A stretch of DNA of 62,971 bases, filler included, from Nitrospinae bacterium RIFCSPLOWO2_12_FULL_45_22 (GTDB taxonomy: Bacteria; 2-12-FULL-45-22), in assembly GCA_001803565.1 (NCBI GenBank). It is 7 parts of 7 records of this genome, joined end to end, with 100 filler letters (N's around TTAATTAATTAA, not from the genome) between each part and the next. Parts side by side here need not be neighbours in the genome. Positions count along the whole stretch, not along the records: positions 1 to 12,107 come from MHDQ01000078.1; 6 more parts are not named here. One strand, written 5' to 3'. The notes below the pieces were generated by a model. The model had not been told where the DNA came from. It ran no database searches and saw only the letters and a program-made list of their open reading frames with translations. Of this stretch, positions 499 through 12,011 are shown piece by piece (position 1 is the stretch's first letter; each line of letters opens with the position of its first letter). Both the position numbers and the translations under genes were made by a program.

Positions 499-1203
499 AT
501 GGAAAGAGATTTCAAAAAAGATTGGCGAGAATACCTGCCCAATAAAATACCAACTAAGGATAAATTACCGGATTACCTATACGAAGTCCTGGAAAAAGAA
601 GGGGTGAAAACGATTCTGGATCTAGGCTGTGGCACTGGTAGGTTCACAATTGATTTAGCCAAAAGAGGCTACTCGGTACTGGGCGTTGATATCAATCCAG
701 AGGCGATAGAGGCAGCAGAGTTAGAAGCAGCGAGATTGCACCCCGCTGAGCGTCGAGGCCGTTTAAGATTCATGGCCGGCGACGTTCTTAATGTAGAACT
801 AGATAGGGCTTCATTCGATGCCGTTTTGCTACAACTGGTAATTTCTATAATAGGCAAAGCTGAAGACCGGTGGAGATTAATACAAGTAGCAAGCTCTTTG
901 TTAAAACCTGTTGGGATATTATATTTTAGCGCCTCTGGTGTATCTGATGAAATTAACCCAACCTATGCTGACCTCTACCAAAAAGACCTGCCATTAACCG
1001 GCGAGGAATACACCTATTTTTCCAGGGATCAAAAAACTGGCGAAATACTCTACCTGACTCATCACTTTACTCACGAGGAGCTAGAGGAGTTACTAAAAGA
1101 AGATTTTGAAATAGAAATGATAAGCAAAGAAAGGGAGGCCAGTAGCCGTCGTCCTAGCGAGGCTGCCTATTTCTTCTATGTTATAGCCAGGCAAAAAATC
1201 TAA
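499..1203 (+). CDS. Class I SAM-dependent methyltransferase
   Basis: ILDLGCGTG motif I, GVDIN motif, GAGGGGG RBS upstream. Confidence 0.88.
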   Translation: MERDFKKDWREYLPNKIPTKDKLPDYLYEVLEKEGVKTILDLGCGTGRFTIDLAKRGYSVLGVDINPEAIEAAELEAARLHPAERRGRLRFMAGDVLNVELDRASFDAVLLQLVISIIGKAEDRWRLIQVASSLLKPVGILYFSASGVSDEINPTYADLYQKDLPLTGEEYTYFSRDQKTGEILYLTHHFTHEELEELLKEDFEIEMISKEREASSRRPSEAAYFFYVIARQKI

Positions 1204-2142: not shown

Positions 2143-2448
2143 CACAAAACCGCATTAATAAAATGAAAATTCCTATGCTATTAAATTAGACTGGAAACAT
2201 AATGTAACTCCAGAAAGTATCCCTCCGATCATCTCTCCATCCTCCAACACATGCCAGGATTGCGAAAATCCTTTTGTTTTCTTACCACAAATGGTAAAAT
2301 GGTTCTGGCTCTAGCGCTTACACCTAAGTAGATTTGATAAAAATGGACGGAATAAATATGATTATGGTTGAGAAAAGAAAATATTTCAGCGTCATGGCAA
2401 ATAAAGTTTATGCGGCTCCCGCATAGGTAACGGTTGGGAGGTGAATGC

Positions 2449-5007
2449 ATGAAGCAACATGAGGTTGATATTTTATCAAGAGTTCGTGATGAGTTAAATC
2501 GCTTAGGTTATGTTGACAAACTTTTACGACAAGACTACGTCTTTGATGATGCATCCGCCACAGGAACCCGAGAGCTGCATATACCCTTAGCAGCCTTTGC
2601 CCAATGGCCACCATCTTATCGCAATGCTTGTATAGGTGTGCTGACTGCGAACCGTCAACCGGGTCCAGAGCATGTTTCAAGCTATAGCACCCTAGGAGCC
2701 CCAATGTTTTTTGAGACGTTTCAGGACCGTATTGACCGATACCGTGTTGAAGCCTCTCGCCATGCTGTTTTCTTGGAGTCAATTCCAGCCCCAAATATCC
2801 CTAATGCCTTTGAGGCCAACAGAGAGAAGTGGGCCCCTGACACAATTTTCCGTGCCAAAGCTATCACGCCATTGACAGGTCCTGTTCAGCTCGATTTTAT
2901 TGATATAGGCCTTTTCCCTGCTCTAAAGGGTATGATCCATGGTAAATTGGATCGTTTACTAAAGGATATATTACAGAAAGCCATCATTACTTATGAGAGC
3001 AACACCTCAGGCGTCAAACCGGACGAAACTTTGCTCTTTCGCCTGATTTTCCGTTTCCTTGCGGCTAAAATTTTAAAGGACAAGAAACATCCTGGTAACT
3101 GGGCGACCCCCCAGGCAAATAGCATAATTGAAGAAATCCAAAGGTTTTATGGGCTCACTGCACCTAACATGCAAAAGATCCTTGATGAGCCGGGTACACA
3201 GCAGATTGTGTGGGATAAGTTTCGAAACGCTTTTAACTTTCAAAATACCTCTGTGGATGATCTGGCGTTTATTTATGAAAATACTTTAATAAGAGAAGAA
3301 ACTCGTAAACAATTTGGAATACACAGTACTCCGCCTGTTATAGCCGAACTCATAGTCGACCGACTTCCCTTTGAATCATTGCCTCAGGATGAACGTTACG
3401 TTCTCGAACCCTGTGCAGGACACGGTGTTTTTTTGGTTGCAGCCTTGCGCCGTCTTCGCGAATTATTGCCCATATCCTGGAGAGATAAGGAGAGACACAG
3501 GTATCTAAAAGACCGATTAACTGCTATTGAGATTGACCCTTTTGCCGCTGAGGTCTGCCGCCTATCCTTGATATTAGCTGATTATCCCAATCCGGACGGC
3601 TGGGAAATTATGCCTGAAGATATCTTCGCCAGCGACGTTCTAAAGAAGCAATTAAAAACATCCCAAATTGTTCTCTGTAACCCCCCCTTTGAAGATTTTA
3701 CCCCATTTGAAAGAATCCGTTATAGTAATAAAGTTCTAAGTGTCCACAAACCTTATGAGATTCTTCGCAGAGTCCTGGAACATCCTCCGGCCATGTTCGG
3801 CTTTGTGTTACCAAAATCTGCTATAGTGGGAGGAAGATATAGAGACCTCCTAGAACAAATTGTCCGTACTTATAAGAACATAGAAACGATAGCTCTACCG
3901 GATCGGATCTTTGTGTTTTCAGATCAAGAGGCTATGTTAGTCCTTGCTTATGAACATGATAAGACAGCCAATGCAAACGTTCTTACTCGCACCTTTTGGG
4001 TACGCGAAAATGATAGGCAATCGTTGCTCGAAACAAGGCGATTACCCAAAGAGATTAGCAAGGTCATAAATCGCTCAACTCATACGAGACCTATTTCCCC
4101 TTGGAATGCTCCCCTTTCAGAAATTTGGGATTATCTCAAAAGTTATCCCCAGTTAAAGGATGTGGCCGACATTCACAGGGGTATTGAATGGAATATTTCT
4201 CTCAAAGAAAATAGAAGTATTTTGATATCTTCTGAGCCAAAACCCGGCTTCAAAAAAGGAATAGACAAGGTTCGAAGGAAAATAGAGCCTTACTATACCG
4301 AGGGATTCGTATATCTCAATATGGATGAGCAGTATCGCCGAACAACCTCGCATTCATTGCCTTGGGATAGTCCCAAGGTCGTTGCTAACAGTCGCAGGAT
4401 AAGCCGGGGGCCGTGGAGGATTGTCGGTAGTCCGGATTCAAGCGGCTTGGTTTGTTACACAAATTTTTTAGGGATGTGGCCAAAAGTAGATATAAATATA
4501 GAAGCGCTTTCAGCTATCATTAATTCCCCTTTGGTCAATGCGGCGCTTTATCTTAAAGGGTATGGACGTGATAACCTGATTAATATATTGGAAAAAATCC
4601 CAATCCCTTTTTCGATGGCTATTGATACAGATAGAATTACTCTCCTCGCCAGGTACTATGCCAAACTTAGATCAGAATTTAAAAAGGGCCCTGTTAAAGC
4701 AACAACTATTAATGAATGTATCAAAACACTAATGGAAATAGACGGTTTGATTCTAAAGGCCTACGATCTCCCTCCAGGGCTTGAACGGAAGCTTTTGGAG
4801 TTTTTTAGAGGATACGACAGACCCCTTCCATTTGGTTTTCCTGACTATTATCCGCCGAAATTTGGACCCTATATTCCATTGCATAAGTACCTTAAGATGG
4901 ATTTTAAACAAGCCAGCGCCAAAGAGCTTCTTAAAAGAATCATCCCTTTTGATTCCGAAGAAATACATGAACTGGTAATGGATATTGAGAGAAGGCAATC
5001 CTTATGA
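2449..5007 (+). CDS. Large N6-adenine DNA methyltransferase, type IIG/Eco57I-like architecture
   Basis: YENTL...RKQFGIHSTP, motif I EPCAGHGVFL, motif IV NPPF, C-terminal TRD-like region; GGAGGTG RBS favours the ATG at 2449. Confidence 0.88.
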   Translation: MKQHEVDILSRVRDELNRLGYVDKLLRQDYVFDDASATGTRELHIPLAAFAQWPPSYRNACIGVLTANRQPGPEHVSSYSTLGAPMFFETFQDRIDRYRVEASRHAVFLESIPAPNIPNAFEANREKWAPDTIFRAKAITPLTGPVQLDFIDIGLFPALKGMIHGKLDRLLKDILQKAIITYESNTSGVKPDETLLFRLIFRFLAAKILKDKKHPGNWATPQANSIIEEIQRFYGLTAPNMQKILDEPGTQQIVWDKFRNAFNFQNTSVDDLAFIYENTLIREETRKQFGIHSTPPVIAELIVDRLPFESLPQDERYVLEPCAGHGVFLVAALRRLRELLPISWRDKERHRYLKDRLTAIEIDPFAAEVCRLSLILADYPNPDGWEIMPEDIFASDVLKKQLKTSQIVLCNPPFEDFTPFERIRYSNKVLSVHKPYEILRRVLEHPPAMFGFVLPKSAIVGGRYRDLLEQIVRTYKNIETIALPDRIFVFSDQEAMLVLAYEHDKTANANVLTRTFWVRENDRQSLLETRRLPKEISKVINRSTHTRPISPWNAPLSEIWDYLKSYPQLKDVADIHRGIEWNISLKENRSILISSEPKPGFKKGIDKVRRKIEPYYTEGFVYLNMDEQYRRTTSHSLPWDSPKVVANSRRISRGPWRIVGSPDSSGLVCYTNFLGMWPKVDINIEALSAIINSPLVNAALYLKGYGRDNLINILEKIPIPFSMAIDTDRITLLARYYAKLRSEFKKGPVKATTINECIKTLMEIDGLILKAYDLPPGLERKLLEFFRGYDRPLPFGFPDYYPPKFGPYIPLHKYLKMDFKQASAKELLKRIIPFDSEEIHELVMDIERRQSL

Positions 5008-5513
5008 ATGGTTACCTATTGGATACCAACGCAGCCAGTATCCTTTGGGATGCCCGGCATACGGATCACAACAAAATCAAATCTTTTCTCGAAAACCATT
5101 CCCAGTCCCTCCTCTGGATATCTATTATCGTGCTGGCAGAGGTTGAGTACGGACTAAAAACAGCTCCCAAAATGGACACAAGTCGTCAGAATGATGTCAG
5201 GAATGAGATGGCCAAATTTCCCGAAGTTCTTGACCTGGATAAGCACACGGTCTCTTCCTATTCGGATATTCGTGCAGAATTGTTTAAAACTTATTCACCA
5301 AAAGTCCGGAGAAAAAGGCTAACAGCAAAATGGCCAGAAGACCTTTTTGAACGAACAAGTGCCAAAGAACTCGGAGTCCAAGAAAATGATATATGGATAG
5401 CATCGCAAGCAATTCAATACAATTTAATACTGGTTACTGATGATCGCATGTCCCGGCTTGTAGAAGTCTCTAATTCCCTCAATGACCCCCTACAAATTGC
5501 TAAATGGAGATAA
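5004..5513 (+). CDS. PIN-domain (VapC-like) ribonuclease
   Basis: YLLDTN, LAEVEYG, ENDIWIA and LVTDD acidic motifs; ATGA overlap with the upstream methyltransferase. Confidence 0.9.
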   Translation: MNGYLLDTNAASILWDARHTDHNKIKSFLENHSQSLLWISIIVLAEVEYGLKTAPKMDTSRQNDVRNEMAKFPEVLDLDKHTVSSYSDIRAELFKTYSPKVRRKRLTAKWPEDLFERTSAKELGVQENDIWIASQAIQYNLILVTDDRMSRLVEVSNSLNDPLQIAKWR

Positions 5514-5736
5514 CGATGCGATAGTATAATAGGGGTCATCCATTAAATGGCTTGTCAGGTAAAAACATACCTCTCTGGTTTAAAAAATTGTTTATTTTTC
5601 CCCTTGGCTTACCCAAGCCCAGCACAACCCCTCATCTTCACTACCCTTTTCGCACCCGTTATTTCTTTCGGAATAGGTTTACGTTCAGGCTTCGCTAATA
5701 CACACCAGGTAGCAAGCAGGATCCAGGTCAATATAT

Positions 5737-5895
5737 ATTATTGTCGGCATGGACCAGCCTGGTGCGGTGGATATTCAGACACTGGAATGGATTGAATCCG
5801 GAAAAGTAATAGATCGTACCCTGGTTAAGGCGCTTCAGACGGAGATAGATGAAGGCCAAGCCGAAAGGATAGCCCTTTCCATTGAGTTGGGTTAA
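5737..5895 (+). pseudogene. Fragment of a DUF3368-like (PIN-fold) gene
   Basis: Manual translation IIVGMDQPGAVDIQTLEWIESGKVIDRTLVKALQTEIDEGQAERIALSIELG* resembles the PGA..WI..LD.GEAEAIALA.EL core of DUF3368 proteins; both ends missing. Confidence 0.6.
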
Positions 5896-7937: not shown

Positions 7938-9689
7938 TTATAACCTTACTTCTTTTAGCTGGCTTAACTTGAGGAGTCTTGCATATAAACCATCTTGTAC
8001 CATCAGCCAGTCATGCGTGCCGCTTTCCACAATCTCTCCTTCTTTAAACACGACTATCAGGTCAGCATCCTTTATCTTTGCCAGCCTGTGGGTAATAATA
8101 ATAGTTGTAAACCCCTTCCTCTCGGCTCTGAGGCACTCCAATATTGCCTCTTCCTTTTCTGCATCCACTGATGAGAAGGGGTCATCCAGTATGAGTATGG
8201 GTGGTTTTCTTATAAGGGCCCGGGCTAGGGTGAGCCTCTGCTTCTGCCCACCAGATAGGTTGATGCCACGTTCTCCCAGATATGAGCCATACTGGTACGG
8301 AAACCCCTGTATCTCGTCATGAATCATCGCAATCCTCGCGGCTTCTTCCACCGAATAGGATGGCCGGGCATCCGTGCCCAGGCCAAAGGCGATATTTTCA
8401 TAGATAGTTTCTGAAAAGAGGAAAGGGTCTTGGGGTACAAATCCTATATTTTCCCTGATCCTCTCAAGCGGAATGTCAGTTATATCCACTCCATCTAAAA
8501 ACAACATTCCCTGGTTAACCGGGTGAAGTCCAGGTATTAATCTAGCCAAGGTACTCTTGCCTGATCCTATGGGACCAACAAATGCTACCACCATCCCCGG
8601 ACTTATATCCAAGTTGATACCCTCAAGGACTGGTTTAGAGGCTCCGGGATAACTAAACGATAAGTTTTTAAACTCTATCTTGCCTTTTATAGTTTTTATA
8701 TCCCGGTGATGATCGCCCTCTGGTCTCTCTGGCGTGGTGTCTAGTACCTCCCTTATCCGTTTCATAGAGGTCAATCCCTTTTGTAATAGATAAATTGCCC
8801 AGCCAACGGCCTTCATAGGCCATATAAGCCTGGATATATACCTTTGAAAGGCGACAAATGTTCCGATGGTTATAGCGCCATTTATAACGTATATACCACC
8901 TACCATTATGAGGAGCACCATCCCGGCATCCATGAAATACTCCATAAACGGTACGAAATATGCCTGGATAAAAGCCAGGGACAGGTTCTTATCCCGGCAT
9001 TTATCATTAATCTGCCTAAAAGATGCTACCTCTTGCTCAGCCCTATTGAATGTCTTTATAACCCTTATACCAGAGACATTCTCCCTTACCTTCTAACTTA
9101 TCTCAGAGAAGGCCTTCAGGACCTCATCAGATTTACGATCTATAATATTCCGGTTCTTTTTGACGAAGAAGGGGAGGCAGGGTAAGAAAAGAAAACTCAC
9201 TAGGGTAAGCCCAGGGGAGAGATAGATCATTATAATAGGGATGGTTAATATATAGAACAATGAGTCCAACGTTATAAGTATCCCCATGCCTACTGCCATT
9301 CTAACTGACTCTGAATCGTTCGTAGCCCTAGACATAATGTCACCCGTAGGTATGGATTGGAAGTAAGATCTGGAAAGCTTCTCCAGGTGTCGGAAAAGCC
9401 TTGCTTTCATATCGTATTCTATCCGGAAGGCAGCACCGACTAAATTCATCCGCCAGCCATATCGAAATAAACCTTGCAGGCAGGCTACCAAGACGAAAAG
9501 GATCGTAAGGGGCATTACACTCCTTTTGCTGGTAATATCAGATATATAGTCAATGGCTACTTTGATTATCAGAGGTGGGAATAGATCAAGGATATCTACT
9601 GCCAGCAGGGAGAGAATGCCCTGGATATAAAAACGTTTATGTCTCTTGATATTGTCCCAAAATAAATAGGTATCCCTGGATAACATCAA
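7938..9689 (-). pseudogene. ABC exporter partner subunit (MdlA/YheI-like) interrupted by an in-frame TAG
   Basis: ORFs 9093-9689 and 7938-8945 are in the same frame and read FSEIS-TAG-KVRENVSGIRVIKTF...; Walker A GPIGSGKS, LSGGQKQ, degenerate Walker B ILDDP. Confidence 0.85.
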
Positions 9690-10290: not shown

Positions 10291-11582
10291 ATGAAGAAAG
10301 AAGAGTTTTACCGAGAAAAGAAAGAGACTACTATCGGGCCTTTAGAAGGCGTAAGGGTTCTGGAGGCCACTACTTCGGGGGCAGGACCTTGGGCCGGGAC
10401 CCTACTGGCGGATATGGGTGCCGAGGTGATAAAGATTGATCAACCAGAGGCCGGGGATGTGGTAAGAAGGCTCCCACCCTTCTTGAAGCCTGAAATGCCC
10501 CAAGAAACCGGCCTATTCCACCTATCCATCAATAGGAACAAGAAGAATATCACCCTTAAATTATCCTCTGACGAAGGGGCCGAGATATTCAAGAGACTGG
10601 CCCTGCATATGGATATTATTATCGAGAATTTCAAGCCCGGGACTATGGATAAATGGGGTATAGGCTATAAAGCTATTGAACAGATACACCCGGCAATCAT
10701 CTATACCTCGGTTTCAGGCTTCGGACAATATGGCCCGCTCCATACCCGGGCAGGTTATGATGGTGTAGGCCAGGCTATGGGTGGCCTGATNNNNNNNNNN
10801 NNNNNNNNNNNNNNNNTGTAGGCCAGGCTATGGGTGGCCTGATGAATATTACTGGCTATCCCGACCGTCCGCCCGTAAAGACCGGCAATGCTATAGCTGA
10901 TAATATTACAGGCTGGCTAGGGGCCTTTGTCTCCGTCTGTGCCTTATATTACCGAAAAAATACTGGTGAAGGGCAGCATTGTGATGTTAATCTACTAGAT
11001 TCTATCCTCTATACCAGTGAGGTAGGGATAATAGGGGCGGCTAATGCCAATTATCATTTAAAGAGGATAGGACACCATCCCCTCACCTTCCGCTCGGTGT
11101 ATGAGTGTAAAGACGGCCGGTACGCCTACCTGATGCCGCTACTGGATCAACATTGGAAAAAACTCTGCCAACTCATAAACCGGGAAGACCTTATTGACGA
11201 CCCCAGGACCAATGCTGCTACCGTGAGGCTGCAGAACAAGGCGGTATGTGAAGAGGCAATAGAGACCTGGATTAAGGATAAAACCGTAGATGAAGTAATA
11301 TCTCTTCTTGGCTCAGAAGGATTAGTCTGTGCCCCGGTACTGGATTTTGCTGAGATAGTTAAAAATGAGCATATCATAGCCAGGGAGATGGTCACTGAGA
11401 CCGAACATCCGGCGGCTGGTAAAATAAAGATCTATGGTGTGGCCCCGAAGCTTTCCAAAACCCCAGGCCGAGTAAGATCGCCTGCCCCTCTCTTAGGCCA
11501 ACACAATGAAGAGGTTTACCTGGGCAGGTTAAAGATGAGCCGAGAAGAATTCGATCGCTATAAATCCTCCGGAATAATATAA
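10291..11582 (+). CDS. CaiB/BaiF family (class III) CoA-transferase, one gene spanning a scaffold gap
   Basis: GPLEGVRVLE, LADMGAEVIK, NRNKK, ENFKPG, GFGQYGP, catalytic Asp in IADNITG; TGTAGGCCAGGCTATGGGTGGCCTGAT is repeated on both sides of the N gap. Confidence 0.92.
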
Positions 11583-11627
11583 ATCGGATACTAGATGACC
11601 CACAGTGAGTGGAGGAAGAATAAGACC

Positions 11628-12011
11628 ATGGCAAATCAGAATATGGGTTACGATTCTTCATGGGATGAAGATAATGAGGAGCTTTTTGATAAGAAATATG
11701 CTGAGTGGGAAAAGAGAAAATGGGAGGCTTGGCTTAAGAAAAAGCTGACTTTTCCATTTATGGTTACCAGGAAAGAGGATGAGGATGATGCTTATTTTAC
11801 TCACGTAGCAAAGCATAAACCGTTTCGGTTAGGCCATACTATGAACGCAGTAGAAATTGCTGGTGAAGATTCTCATTATGGAGTAATCATTAAAGTTAGC
11901 GAAGAGAAAAAGGTTGGCTATGTCCCCTTATGTGATGTCGAAGTAACCCCTAAAAGTGATCCAAATTACTGGTCGGTGAGGGAATATGTCGTCTGGTTTG
12001 CTAATAGATAA
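11628..12011 (+). CDS. CcbP-like (calcium-binding family) protein
   Basis: W...L.FPF, YGVIIKV, VPLCDVEV and EYVVWFANR C-terminal pattern; acidic N-terminus. Confidence 0.65.
   Translation: MANQNMGYDSSWDEDNEELFDKKYAEWEKRKWEAWLKKKLTFPFMVTRKEDEDDAYFTHVAKHKPFRLGHTMNAVEIAGEDSHYGVIIKVSEEKKVGYVPLCDVEVTPKSDPNYWSVREYVVWFANR

Follow-up and report, generated by a model that had tools for sequence, protein, structure and literature searches.

We analyzed a 62,971-nucleotide (nt) stretch of DNA (hereinafter, the window), composed of 7 joined parts of the genome of Nitrospinae bacterium RIFCSPLOWO2_12_FULL_45_22 (GenBank assembly GCA_001803565.1), with a focus on two overlapping genes on the plus strand: one for a type IIG-like N6-adenine DNA methyltransferase of 852 amino acids (aa) with an antitoxin-like C-terminal tail (positions 2449-5007) and one for a VapC-like PIN nuclease of 169 aa (5004-5513). 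The stop codon of the former (TGA, 5005-5007) and the start codon of the latter (ATG, 5004-5006) overlap in the sequence ATGA (5004-5007); this gene order, together with the overlap, is the pattern of type II toxin-antitoxin (TA) operons, in which the antitoxin gene comes first. The likely start of the methyltransferase is the ATG at 2449, with the ribosome-binding-like site GGGAGG (2436-2441, plus strand) located 7 nt 5' of it; the open reading frame (ORF) also extends from 2434. The initial annotation of this locus proposed that the pair is a candidate defense system, and the anatomical observations behind that proposal have held up: the methyltransferase of about 850 aa contains the EPCAGHG and NPPF motifs, lacks a PD-(D/E)xK motif in its N-terminal domain, ends in an extra tail and overlaps a PIN gene that keeps all four acidic motifs, and no restriction or HsdS gene is present within 12 kb of the pair.

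The methyltransferase matches the Pfam families N6_Mtase (E 4.6e-10, residues 269-492) and MmeI_Mtase (E 2.8e-6). The S-adenosylmethionine (SAM)-binding motif I, EPCAGHG, occupies residues 320-326 (3406-3426, plus strand), and the catalytic motif IV, NPPF, residues 411-414 (3679-3690, plus strand); in an alignment of 61 family members, G324, N411, P412 and P413 are invariant and F414 is conserved in at least 90% of the sequences. The core is a gamma-class N6-adenine methyltransferase that is apparently active. An AlphaFold model of the protein (mean predicted local distance difference test score, pLDDT, 89.0; predicted template modeling score, pTM, 0.82) yielded, in Foldseek searches, the DNA adenine methyltransferases CamA and BseCI as the best matches (E ~1e-20), followed by alignments of 821-972 columns with BpuSI, DrdV and MmeI, which are single-chain enzymes, and with BREX PglX/BrxX. 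At the level of sequence, the match to solved proteins is confined to the methyltransferase core, residues 268-533. The model includes a beta-rich domain that resembles target-recognition domains, at approximately residues 521-725 (4009-4623, plus strand; the limits are approximate). Matches to the specificity domain TaqI_C were detected in relatives, most of these below the cut-off and one, in the representative P0339, above it (27.6 vs 26.5 bits); a Pfam scan gave no such match for the window methyltransferase itself.

The N-terminal domain of the methyltransferase (residues 1-150; 2449-2898, plus strand) has a restriction endonuclease (PD-(D/E)xK) fold without the catalytic residues. Modeled separately, residues 1-154 (pLDDT 87.7) adopt the alpha-beta-beta-beta-alpha-beta layout seen in restriction endonucleases. 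The structural comparison with VIA-align produced Z values that are middling by the calibration of the tool, the top matches being the HsdR nuclease domain 3h1t (Z 9.6, root-mean-square deviation, rmsd, 4.4, 128 residues aligned), the restriction-endonuclease-domain protein 9y1l (Z 8.5, rmsd 3.5, 123 aligned), BpuSI, 3s1s (Z 8.0, rmsd 6.0, 131 aligned) and DrdV, 7lo5 (Z 7.8, rmsd 6.3, 133 aligned), followed by TT1808, EcoR124I HsdR, Hjc and other nucleases; nuclease folds make up most of the top 20 rows, with a few exceptions such as mitoribosomal proteins and pheromone precursors. Foldseek matches of this domain were weaker, the best one being again 3h1t (E 2.7e-3). In all 35 relatives compared, the strands that correspond to residues 42-50 (ELHIPLAAF) and 60-66 (ACIGVLT) contain no conserved acidic residue or lysine, and the D/ExK motif is absent. 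In the same 35 sequences, G20, Y21, Y30, F50, P54, A84, P85, W128, P130, Q147 and D149 are invariant. The loss of the catalytic positions combined with the invariance of others indicates that the domain is under selection, although not as a canonical nuclease; conceivably, it has an active site of a non-canonical kind.

The PIN protein contains a readily detectable PIN domain (PF01850, E 1.2e-13), and its acidic quartet, D7, E46, D129 and D147, is invariant in 29 of the 29 family members compared. In a sequence profile search, the solved proteins closest to it were VapC toxins and FitB (3zvk, E 4.8e-10). The family is tight, comprising 214 clusters, many of which lie on contigs equal in size to those of the methyltransferase clusters when the two lists are compared by eye. 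Among the longer proteins searched, no fused PIN forms were found, which is weak evidence by the own account of the tool. Between the second and third catalytic acids, residues 97-125 (5292-5378) form a conserved, family-specific basic insertion, SPxxRRGRLxxKxPEDLxxRTxxKELG, that the classical VapCs in the profile alignment against the Protein Data Bank (PDB) do not cover; this insertion may be a substrate-binding element.

To characterize the pair beyond a single genome, we collected 86 related loci (6 genomic and 80 metagenomic) with methyltransferases 37-80% identical to that of the window. Of these, 72 could be scored; ten run off the contig at the 3' side, two contain ORFs shorter than 560 aa and two have less than 150 nt of downstream sequence. 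A gene of the same PIN family was scored directly downstream of 59 of the 61 methyltransferases with the tail type of the window, compared with one of the 11 that have another tail or, in L027, a truncated 3' end (Fisher p = 1.3e-9, a value to be read with the caveat that near-duplicates, L030/31, L034/35, L074/75, L080-82 and L013/40, make the locus counts overstate independence). Three of the exceptions can be accounted for. One of the two tail-type loci scored without the PIN gene, L050, possesses it after all, the start having been missed by the search window, which brings the count to 60 of 61; in the other, L054, the distal half of the tail is missing and the next gene is a MazF gene. 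The sole locus with a PIN match and without the tail, L016, has an internal deletion in the methyltransferase and a truncated PIN. The methyltransferase stop and the PIN start overlap by 1 nt in 29 loci and by 4 nt in 10, and the adjacency persists in relatives down to 37% methyltransferase identity. Thus, the two-gene architecture is conserved, and the relatives scored do not usually lack the PIN gene. Pairs of this kind are also found on annotated plasmids: on the Sinorhizobium chiapasense plasmid pSchITTGS70c, an 'N-6 DNA methylase' is followed by a 'PIN domain-containing protein', and on the Agrobacterium tumefaciens plasmid pAtA74a_a, the methylase/PIN pair adjoins a gene with the annotation 'Shedu SduA domain-containing protein'.

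When the tail differs, the downstream slot is occupied by other genes. In L056, L063, L072 and L080-L082 (L063 having been assigned from sequence alone), a gene for a metallo-beta-lactamase (MBL)-fold protein (Lactamase_B) abuts the methyltransferase stop; these proteins are 334-351 aa long and are closest to the MBL domain of ComEC/Rec2. The MBL-linked methyltransferases bear a distinct tail ending ...VNVGAKKAEDLSFE.... The same slot contains a PemK/MazF gene in L054, HNH endonucleases that resemble retron and Septu effectors in L071 and L086, and a PIN_3 protein in L070. On plasmid 8 of Rhizobium sp. Q54 (L089, 2986-6404), the gene for a 945-aa 'SAM-dependent methyltransferase' overlaps by 4 nt the gene for a 'RES domain-containing protein', with the RES domain identified at E 1.5e-16; directly upstream of this methyltransferase lies a gene annotated 'restriction endonuclease BseRI'. 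The tail type and the type of the downstream gene change together across the family.

The tail of the window methyltransferase spans residues 799-852 (DYYPPKF...EIHELVMDIERRQSL). A lead to the function of such tails comes from the RES-linked relative, in which the tail matches Xre-MbcA-ParS_M (residues 845-891, E 0.011), Xre_MbcA_ParS_C (PF09722, 'toxin-binding domain'; residues 902-929, E 1.5e-4, 22.1 vs the 24.5-bit cut-off), TIGR02293 (E 2e-6, 27.5 vs 57 bits) and NF049845, 'type II RES/Xre antitoxin' (E 4e-4). The resemblance to Xre/MbcA/ParS antitoxins is suggestive, and the domain order and the cognate toxin encoded next door fit it. A phmmer search of this tail against PDB sequences gave no match; the metagenomic representative P0354 shares the same tail (BLASTP E 5e-24).

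For the window pair, we modeled a complex of methyltransferase residues 533-852 with the PIN protein in three runs that differed in seeds alone, along with three controls. The interface score ipSAE was 0.86, 0.85 and 0.85, as against 0.00 for the best of the controls; in the calibration of the tool, 58 of 80 solved complexes reach this mark, as do 2 of 110 mismatched pairs, counts that are approximate here since custom alignments were used. The runs agree in at least 95% of the contacts, and the pLDDT of the partners is at least 83. The confident methyltransferase contacts are residues 775-780, 802-809 and 817-852, and those on the PIN side include 7-9, 46-47, 124, 126, 129 and 148, that is, the catalytic pocket, so that tail residues 802-852 (4852-5004, plus strand) are predicted to wrap the PIN domain and cover its active site, much as VapB antitoxins do with VapC. 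In the model of the methyltransferase alone, the last 50 residues are the least confident ones (block means 55-82), as expected for a segment that folds on a partner. With tail type and downstream gene type changing together, the tail is the best candidate for the antitoxin of the PIN nuclease.

In many of the related loci, an additional gene precedes the pair. In the close clade (at least 58% identity), to which the window belongs, a gene for a MerR_1 protein of about 150 aa is located directly before the methyltransferase in 38 of the 40 evaluable loci, being missing in L003 and L038; in the clade with about 40% identity, such a gene is present in 2 of 29 evaluable loci. In that clade, the upstream gene in L074 and L077 encodes a 63-aa ribbon-helix-helix (RHH) protein with sub-cut-off matches (E 2e-5 and 6e-4) to RHH families of FitA-like antitoxins, that in L071 encodes a protein with an Xre-type helix-turn-helix (HTH), and the remaining loci have small upstream proteins without a family or nothing upstream. 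A conserved upstream protein of 86-98 aa (MRIKIKINPKTGVVYLP...) in L053, L055, L057, L060 and L065 looks AbrB/MazE-like by eye; it has no Pfam match (L053, L055, L057, L060), no NCBIfam match (L053) and no PDB profile match, and in the Atlas, MazE_antitoxin clusters come up as a weak lead (score 0.79). The window itself retains 26 residues from the distal part of the MerR gene (2334-2411, plus strand; tblastn with the MerR proteins of 5 relatives, E 4e-4 to 1e-3), at which a mini-ORF of 27 codons is located (2343-2426, plus strand); tblastn detected neither the HTH-coding part nor any further part of the gene in the whole window, and the window ORFs include no small antitoxin gene. The description of the pair as antitoxin-less in the initial annotation, which overlooked both this regulator and its remnant, accordingly applies to the window copy and not to the family. 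According to Makarova et al. 2009 (PMC2701414), MerR-PIN gene pairs are predicted TA systems, which makes the MerR protein a fair rival candidate for the antitoxin. Nevertheless, because one and the same PIN family is combined with varied upstream genes or none, because the tail tracks the effector, and because intact PINs occur without MerR in the window, in L003 and in 27 of the 29 evaluable loci of the ~40% clade, we read the upstream gene as a regulator.

Upstream of the pair are a tRNA-Leu(CAA) (239-325), a small class I SAM methyltransferase (Methyltransf_25; 499-1203, plus strand) and RadC (1300-1965). The RadC/tRNA setting noted for the pair is real in the window and is not conserved in the relatives. 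The small methyltransferase is matched by the PADLOC 'mad2' model (E 3e-28), which looks like a generic Rossmann-fold similarity rather than the mark of a defense gene. Between RadC and the MerR remnant lies a near-perfect AT-rich palindrome of 37 nt (2038-2074; 16-bp stem, 5-nt loop) that scores as terminator-like on the minus strand and may mark the junction of a cassette truncation or insertion. The base composition around the cassette shows no anomaly, the promoter-like sites upstream (2088-2117 and 2334-2362) are no commoner than in shuffled sequence, and terminator-like sites number 7, vs 3.8 ± 2.0 in the shuffles. The ORF that follows the PIN gene (5547-5795, plus strand; 82 aa), hydrophobic and of low complexity, matches no family and probably does not represent a gene. 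Farther downstream are ABC transporter genes on the opposite strand. One ABC transporter is split on the minus strand into 7938-8945, the membrane part (profile positions 4-179), and 9093-9689, a piece that bears the ATPase domain and, starting at about model position 250, can be aligned with MsbA-type exporters. On the plus strand, a family III CoA-transferase is in two pieces as well, 10291-10821 (profile 1-145) and 10830-11582 (profile 141-366), in different frames; these split genes could be frameshift pseudogenes or assembly indels. Despite the split genes close by, the methyltransferase and the PIN are both intact and keep every motif. A 138-aa protein (11595-12011, plus strand) matches the calcium-binding CcbP family (PF11535, E 5.8e-8), and the ABC transporters near it have their top scores with models associated with HepA and cyanophycin. 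The named relatives of the methyltransferase come from metagenome-assembled genomes of Desulfobacterales/Deltaproteobacteria and one of Pseudomonadota, and the contrast with these CcbP and ABC transporter neighbors suggests that the cassette was horizontally transferred.

The methyltransferase family is large, with 1642 representatives at 50% identity matching at E <= 1e-3 and 493 at E <= 1e-30, mostly of about 840 aa and alignable end to end. The module with PIN is found in few genomes: of 401 genomes sampled from the phylum to which one source genome belongs, 4 contain the PIN family. No relatives of the methyltransferase were found in the phage collection searched. Among the 29 loci examined for context, about 10-11 have defense-type neighbors, including type III and BsuBI/PstI restriction-modification (RM) systems, TIR_2, SLFN_AlbA_2, HepT, AAA_21/AAA_15, SIR2 and DUF4143 ATPases. 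The low frequency, the lack of phage relatives and the mixed neighborhoods together characterize the module as rare, patchy and mobile.

Taken together, these observations lead us to propose, with a probability of roughly one half, that the pair is a TA-like module acting in defense, with an antitoxin formed by the tail of a type IIG descendant that has a dead nuclease and is competent in methylation. The place of the small VapB would be taken by the upstream, translationally coupled 852-aa type IIG-derived enzyme, which would retain N6-adenine methylation and target recognition, with its N-terminal endonuclease domain catalytically lost, and the last ~50 residues of which are predicted to wrap the PIN, occlude the active site and keep the toxin latent. 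Across the family, one scaffold bears varying tails paired with PIN, PIN_3, MazF, RES, HNH and MBL-fold effectors, and a TA-type DNA-binding regulator (MerR, RHH or Xre), lost in the window, is often encoded ahead of it. The methyltransferase would mark the DNA of its own cell, and a disturbance of the platform would free the toxin and result in abortive infection; such a disturbance might come from contact with foreign DNA that is unmodified, from an anti-restriction protein of a phage, or from a shut-off with subsequent decay of the tail. The anatomy of the locus, the recurrence of the pair in relatives, the co-variation of tail and effector, the dead nuclease motif and the integrity of the methyltransferase and PIN motifs are what the analysis shows; the binding and neutralization of PIN by the tail, the trigger and the defense role are inferred. 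The initial annotation had suggested that a nuclease-dead, RM-like protein serves as both sensor and antitoxin: the dead nuclease domain and, through the co-variation, the RES-linked tail and the complex model, the candidate antitoxin tail agree with this suggestion, whereas infection sensing and phage defense would be putative roles.

Several observations weigh against this scenario. In 8 of 55 evaluable loci, the PIN is broken while the methyltransferase is whole, and internal stops in PIN were also seen in 2 of 5 source genomes, as well as in one additional genome. By contrast, none of the three loci that have lost the 3' end of the methyltransferase (L027, L042, L078) retains a PIN on the available DNA, and the PIN of L016 is truncated; this asymmetry of loss speaks for the scenario, being the one predicted by a toxin/antitoxin relation, albeit in small numbers. 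About two thirds of the 29 examined loci are located among housekeeping genes. The domain matches of the RES-linked tail, albeit co-linear, are all below the curated cut-offs; since VapB-VapC complexes have been solved, the modeling tool may in part be reproducing an interface type already known to it, which would raise the complex score; and most relatives carry an upstream TA-type DNA-binding gene that itself might encode the antitoxin. A hypervariable recognition domain was not seen in the close clade, where identity is 0.56 in this region vs 0.64-0.72 elsewhere. In PADLOC searches, the methyltransferase gave only generic methyltransferase matches over the core (best mad2, E 5.4e-17) and the PIN gave none. 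Finally, with the regulator lost and two adjacent genes split, local decay or assembly error is possible at this copy.

A bolder version of the scenario, which we offer only tentatively, is that the family represents a large, unrecognized immune class derived from type IIG enzymes, in which methylation would be the self mark, and unmodified DNA or an anti-restriction protein would release an interchangeable, tail-held toxin, a mechanism that could be described as methylation-gated abortive infection. If true, methylation-gated toxin release may amount to more than a variant of the known kinds.

It seems somewhat unlikely that the tail neutralizes PIN in the service of selfish addiction, that is, post-segregational killing that retains the methyltransferase gene or a mobile element. 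Copies located on rhizobial plasmids beside transposases, the patchy occurrence of the family in the phylum sampled, the frequent insertion of the cassette among housekeeping genes and the TA-like upstream regulators would all be compatible with such a role, which, however, does not account for the retention, across about 1600 representative clusters, of a large DNA-recognizing scaffold whose dead nuclease domain is conserved; in addition, some loci lie in defense-type neighborhoods. The addiction and defense roles are not mutually exclusive, and the module probably serves phage defense or addiction.

We consider it unlikely that the true antitoxin is the DNA-binding protein encoded upstream (of MerR, RHH or Xre type) and that the methyltransferase is a third component or cargo, which would leave the PIN of the window unguarded and inactive, unexpressed or decaying. 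This explanation draws on the near-universal MerR gene of the close clade and the predicted MerR-PIN TA pairs, on the sub-cut-off RHH matches to FitA-like families, and on the reduction of the MerR gene to a remnant in the window; it is at odds with the occurrence of the same PIN family with MerR, RHH, unassigned small genes or nothing upstream while the tail type tracks the effector, with the intact PINs that lack MerR in L003 and the window, and with the complex model, in which the tail is predicted to sit on the PIN active site.

The suggestion, made at the outset as the alternative to a sensor role, that PIN replaces the restriction nuclease has been weakened. Specifically, PIN would be a trans-acting nuclease subunit of a restriction-like enzyme, recruited by the tail to unmethylated DNA in place of the dead N-terminal nuclease. 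The type IIG-like architecture with its dead nuclease domain lends itself to this interpretation, and so do the sister variants that carry HNH or MBL-fold genes, potential DNases; but MazF and RES, the toxins of other sister variants, are not known to be DNases, the nearest solved relatives of PIN are VapC tRNases and FitB, and the modeled contact would occlude the active site rather than present it, so that we regard this explanation as quite doubtful. That an orphan methyltransferase came by chance to lie beside a VapC whose VapB gene was lost, as the lack of a small antitoxin gene in the window might suggest, is hardly credible given the 1- or 4-nt overlaps conserved across 37-80% methyltransferase identity and the tight PIN family of 214 clusters; chance juxtaposition is rejected by the conservation of the pair in relatives.

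If the tail is indeed the antitoxin, the family joins RM-type epigenetic self-marking with TA killing, two strategies that are usually separate, and offers, on one scaffold, tail-toxin pairs matched by nature, a series with which the holding and release of toxins could be investigated. Many genes for which the annotation goes no further than 'N-6 DNA methylase' and 'PIN domain-containing protein' would then also be explained, on a scale of about 1600 representative clusters at 50% identity that match the methyltransferase. Furthermore, the family is a testable case of the fate of a restriction enzyme after the death of its nuclease.

Comparison with known systems places the pair between several of them. 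Like the type IIG/IIL enzymes BpuSI (3s1s), DrdV (7lo5) and MmeI (5hr4), the methyltransferase combines, in one chain, an endonuclease-fold N-terminus, a helical linker, a gamma-class N6-adenine methyltransferase core and a probable recognition domain, the sequence similarity being limited to the core; unlike these enzymes, members of the family described here lack the canonical D/ExK and have an additional tail at the C-terminus, with a toxin-type gene obligately encoded downstream. With BREX PglX/BrxX and MADS MAD2, which are defense-linked N6-adenine methyltransferases without a working nuclease, there is a fold match (PglX) and there are partial model matches, the NCBIfam scores being 19.1 vs a cut-off of 400 bits for PglX and 27.8 vs 720 bits for MAD2; Pfam and PADLOC scans revealed no BREX or MADS partner genes in the window.

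On the toxin side, VapBC and FitAB share with the pair the four-acid PIN toxin, the overlap of the toxin gene with an upstream partner gene and, according to the model, the placement of the partner C-terminus over the active site; here, however, the partner is an 852-aa methyltransferase rather than an ~80-aa DNA-binding antitoxin, and the small DNA-binding protein, where present, is the product of a separate upstream gene. The Xre-RES, MbcTA and ParST systems are brought to mind by the Q54 relative, in which the RES gene overlaps a methyltransferase with a tail that resembles, at sub-cut-off scores, the middle and toxin-binding domains of the antitoxin; the difference is that these domains are fused to a methyltransferase scaffold, and the window tail is of another type. 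In three-gene TA systems such as omega-epsilon-zeta, a separate regulator is followed by the neutralizer and then by the toxin, an order that corresponds to MerR/RHH/Xre, methyltransferase and toxin in the relatives, except that the neutralizer here would be a large enzyme and that the window copy is without the regulator.

In PrrC-EcoprrI and PARIS, a latent RNase is held by an RM-type or sensor protein and freed on infection, and the logic of a latent RNase held by an RM-type protein is what they have in common with the proposed mechanism. PrrC is an ATPase-anticodon nuclease inside an active type I locus and PARIS consists of an ABC ATPase and a Toprim nuclease; neither includes a PIN or a single-chain methyltransferase with a fused tail. 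The window contains no hsd genes, no PrrC model having been searched by name, and the PADLOC model of the PARIS component AriA matches just an ABC transporter ATPase, weakly. Matelska et al. 2017 (PMC5499597) report PIN genes beside type I HsdM/HsdS subunits, whereas, by their account, no PIN genes were seen next to type II systems that lack a specificity subunit. No description of a methyltransferase-tail/PIN module was found in the literature searched, outside of which fell much of the subscription literature and all supplementary files. The pair seems to be a variant both of type II TA and of the toxins linked to RM proteins, in an arrangement that is itself undescribed in this literature and that points to a family of methyltransferase-tethered toxin modules.

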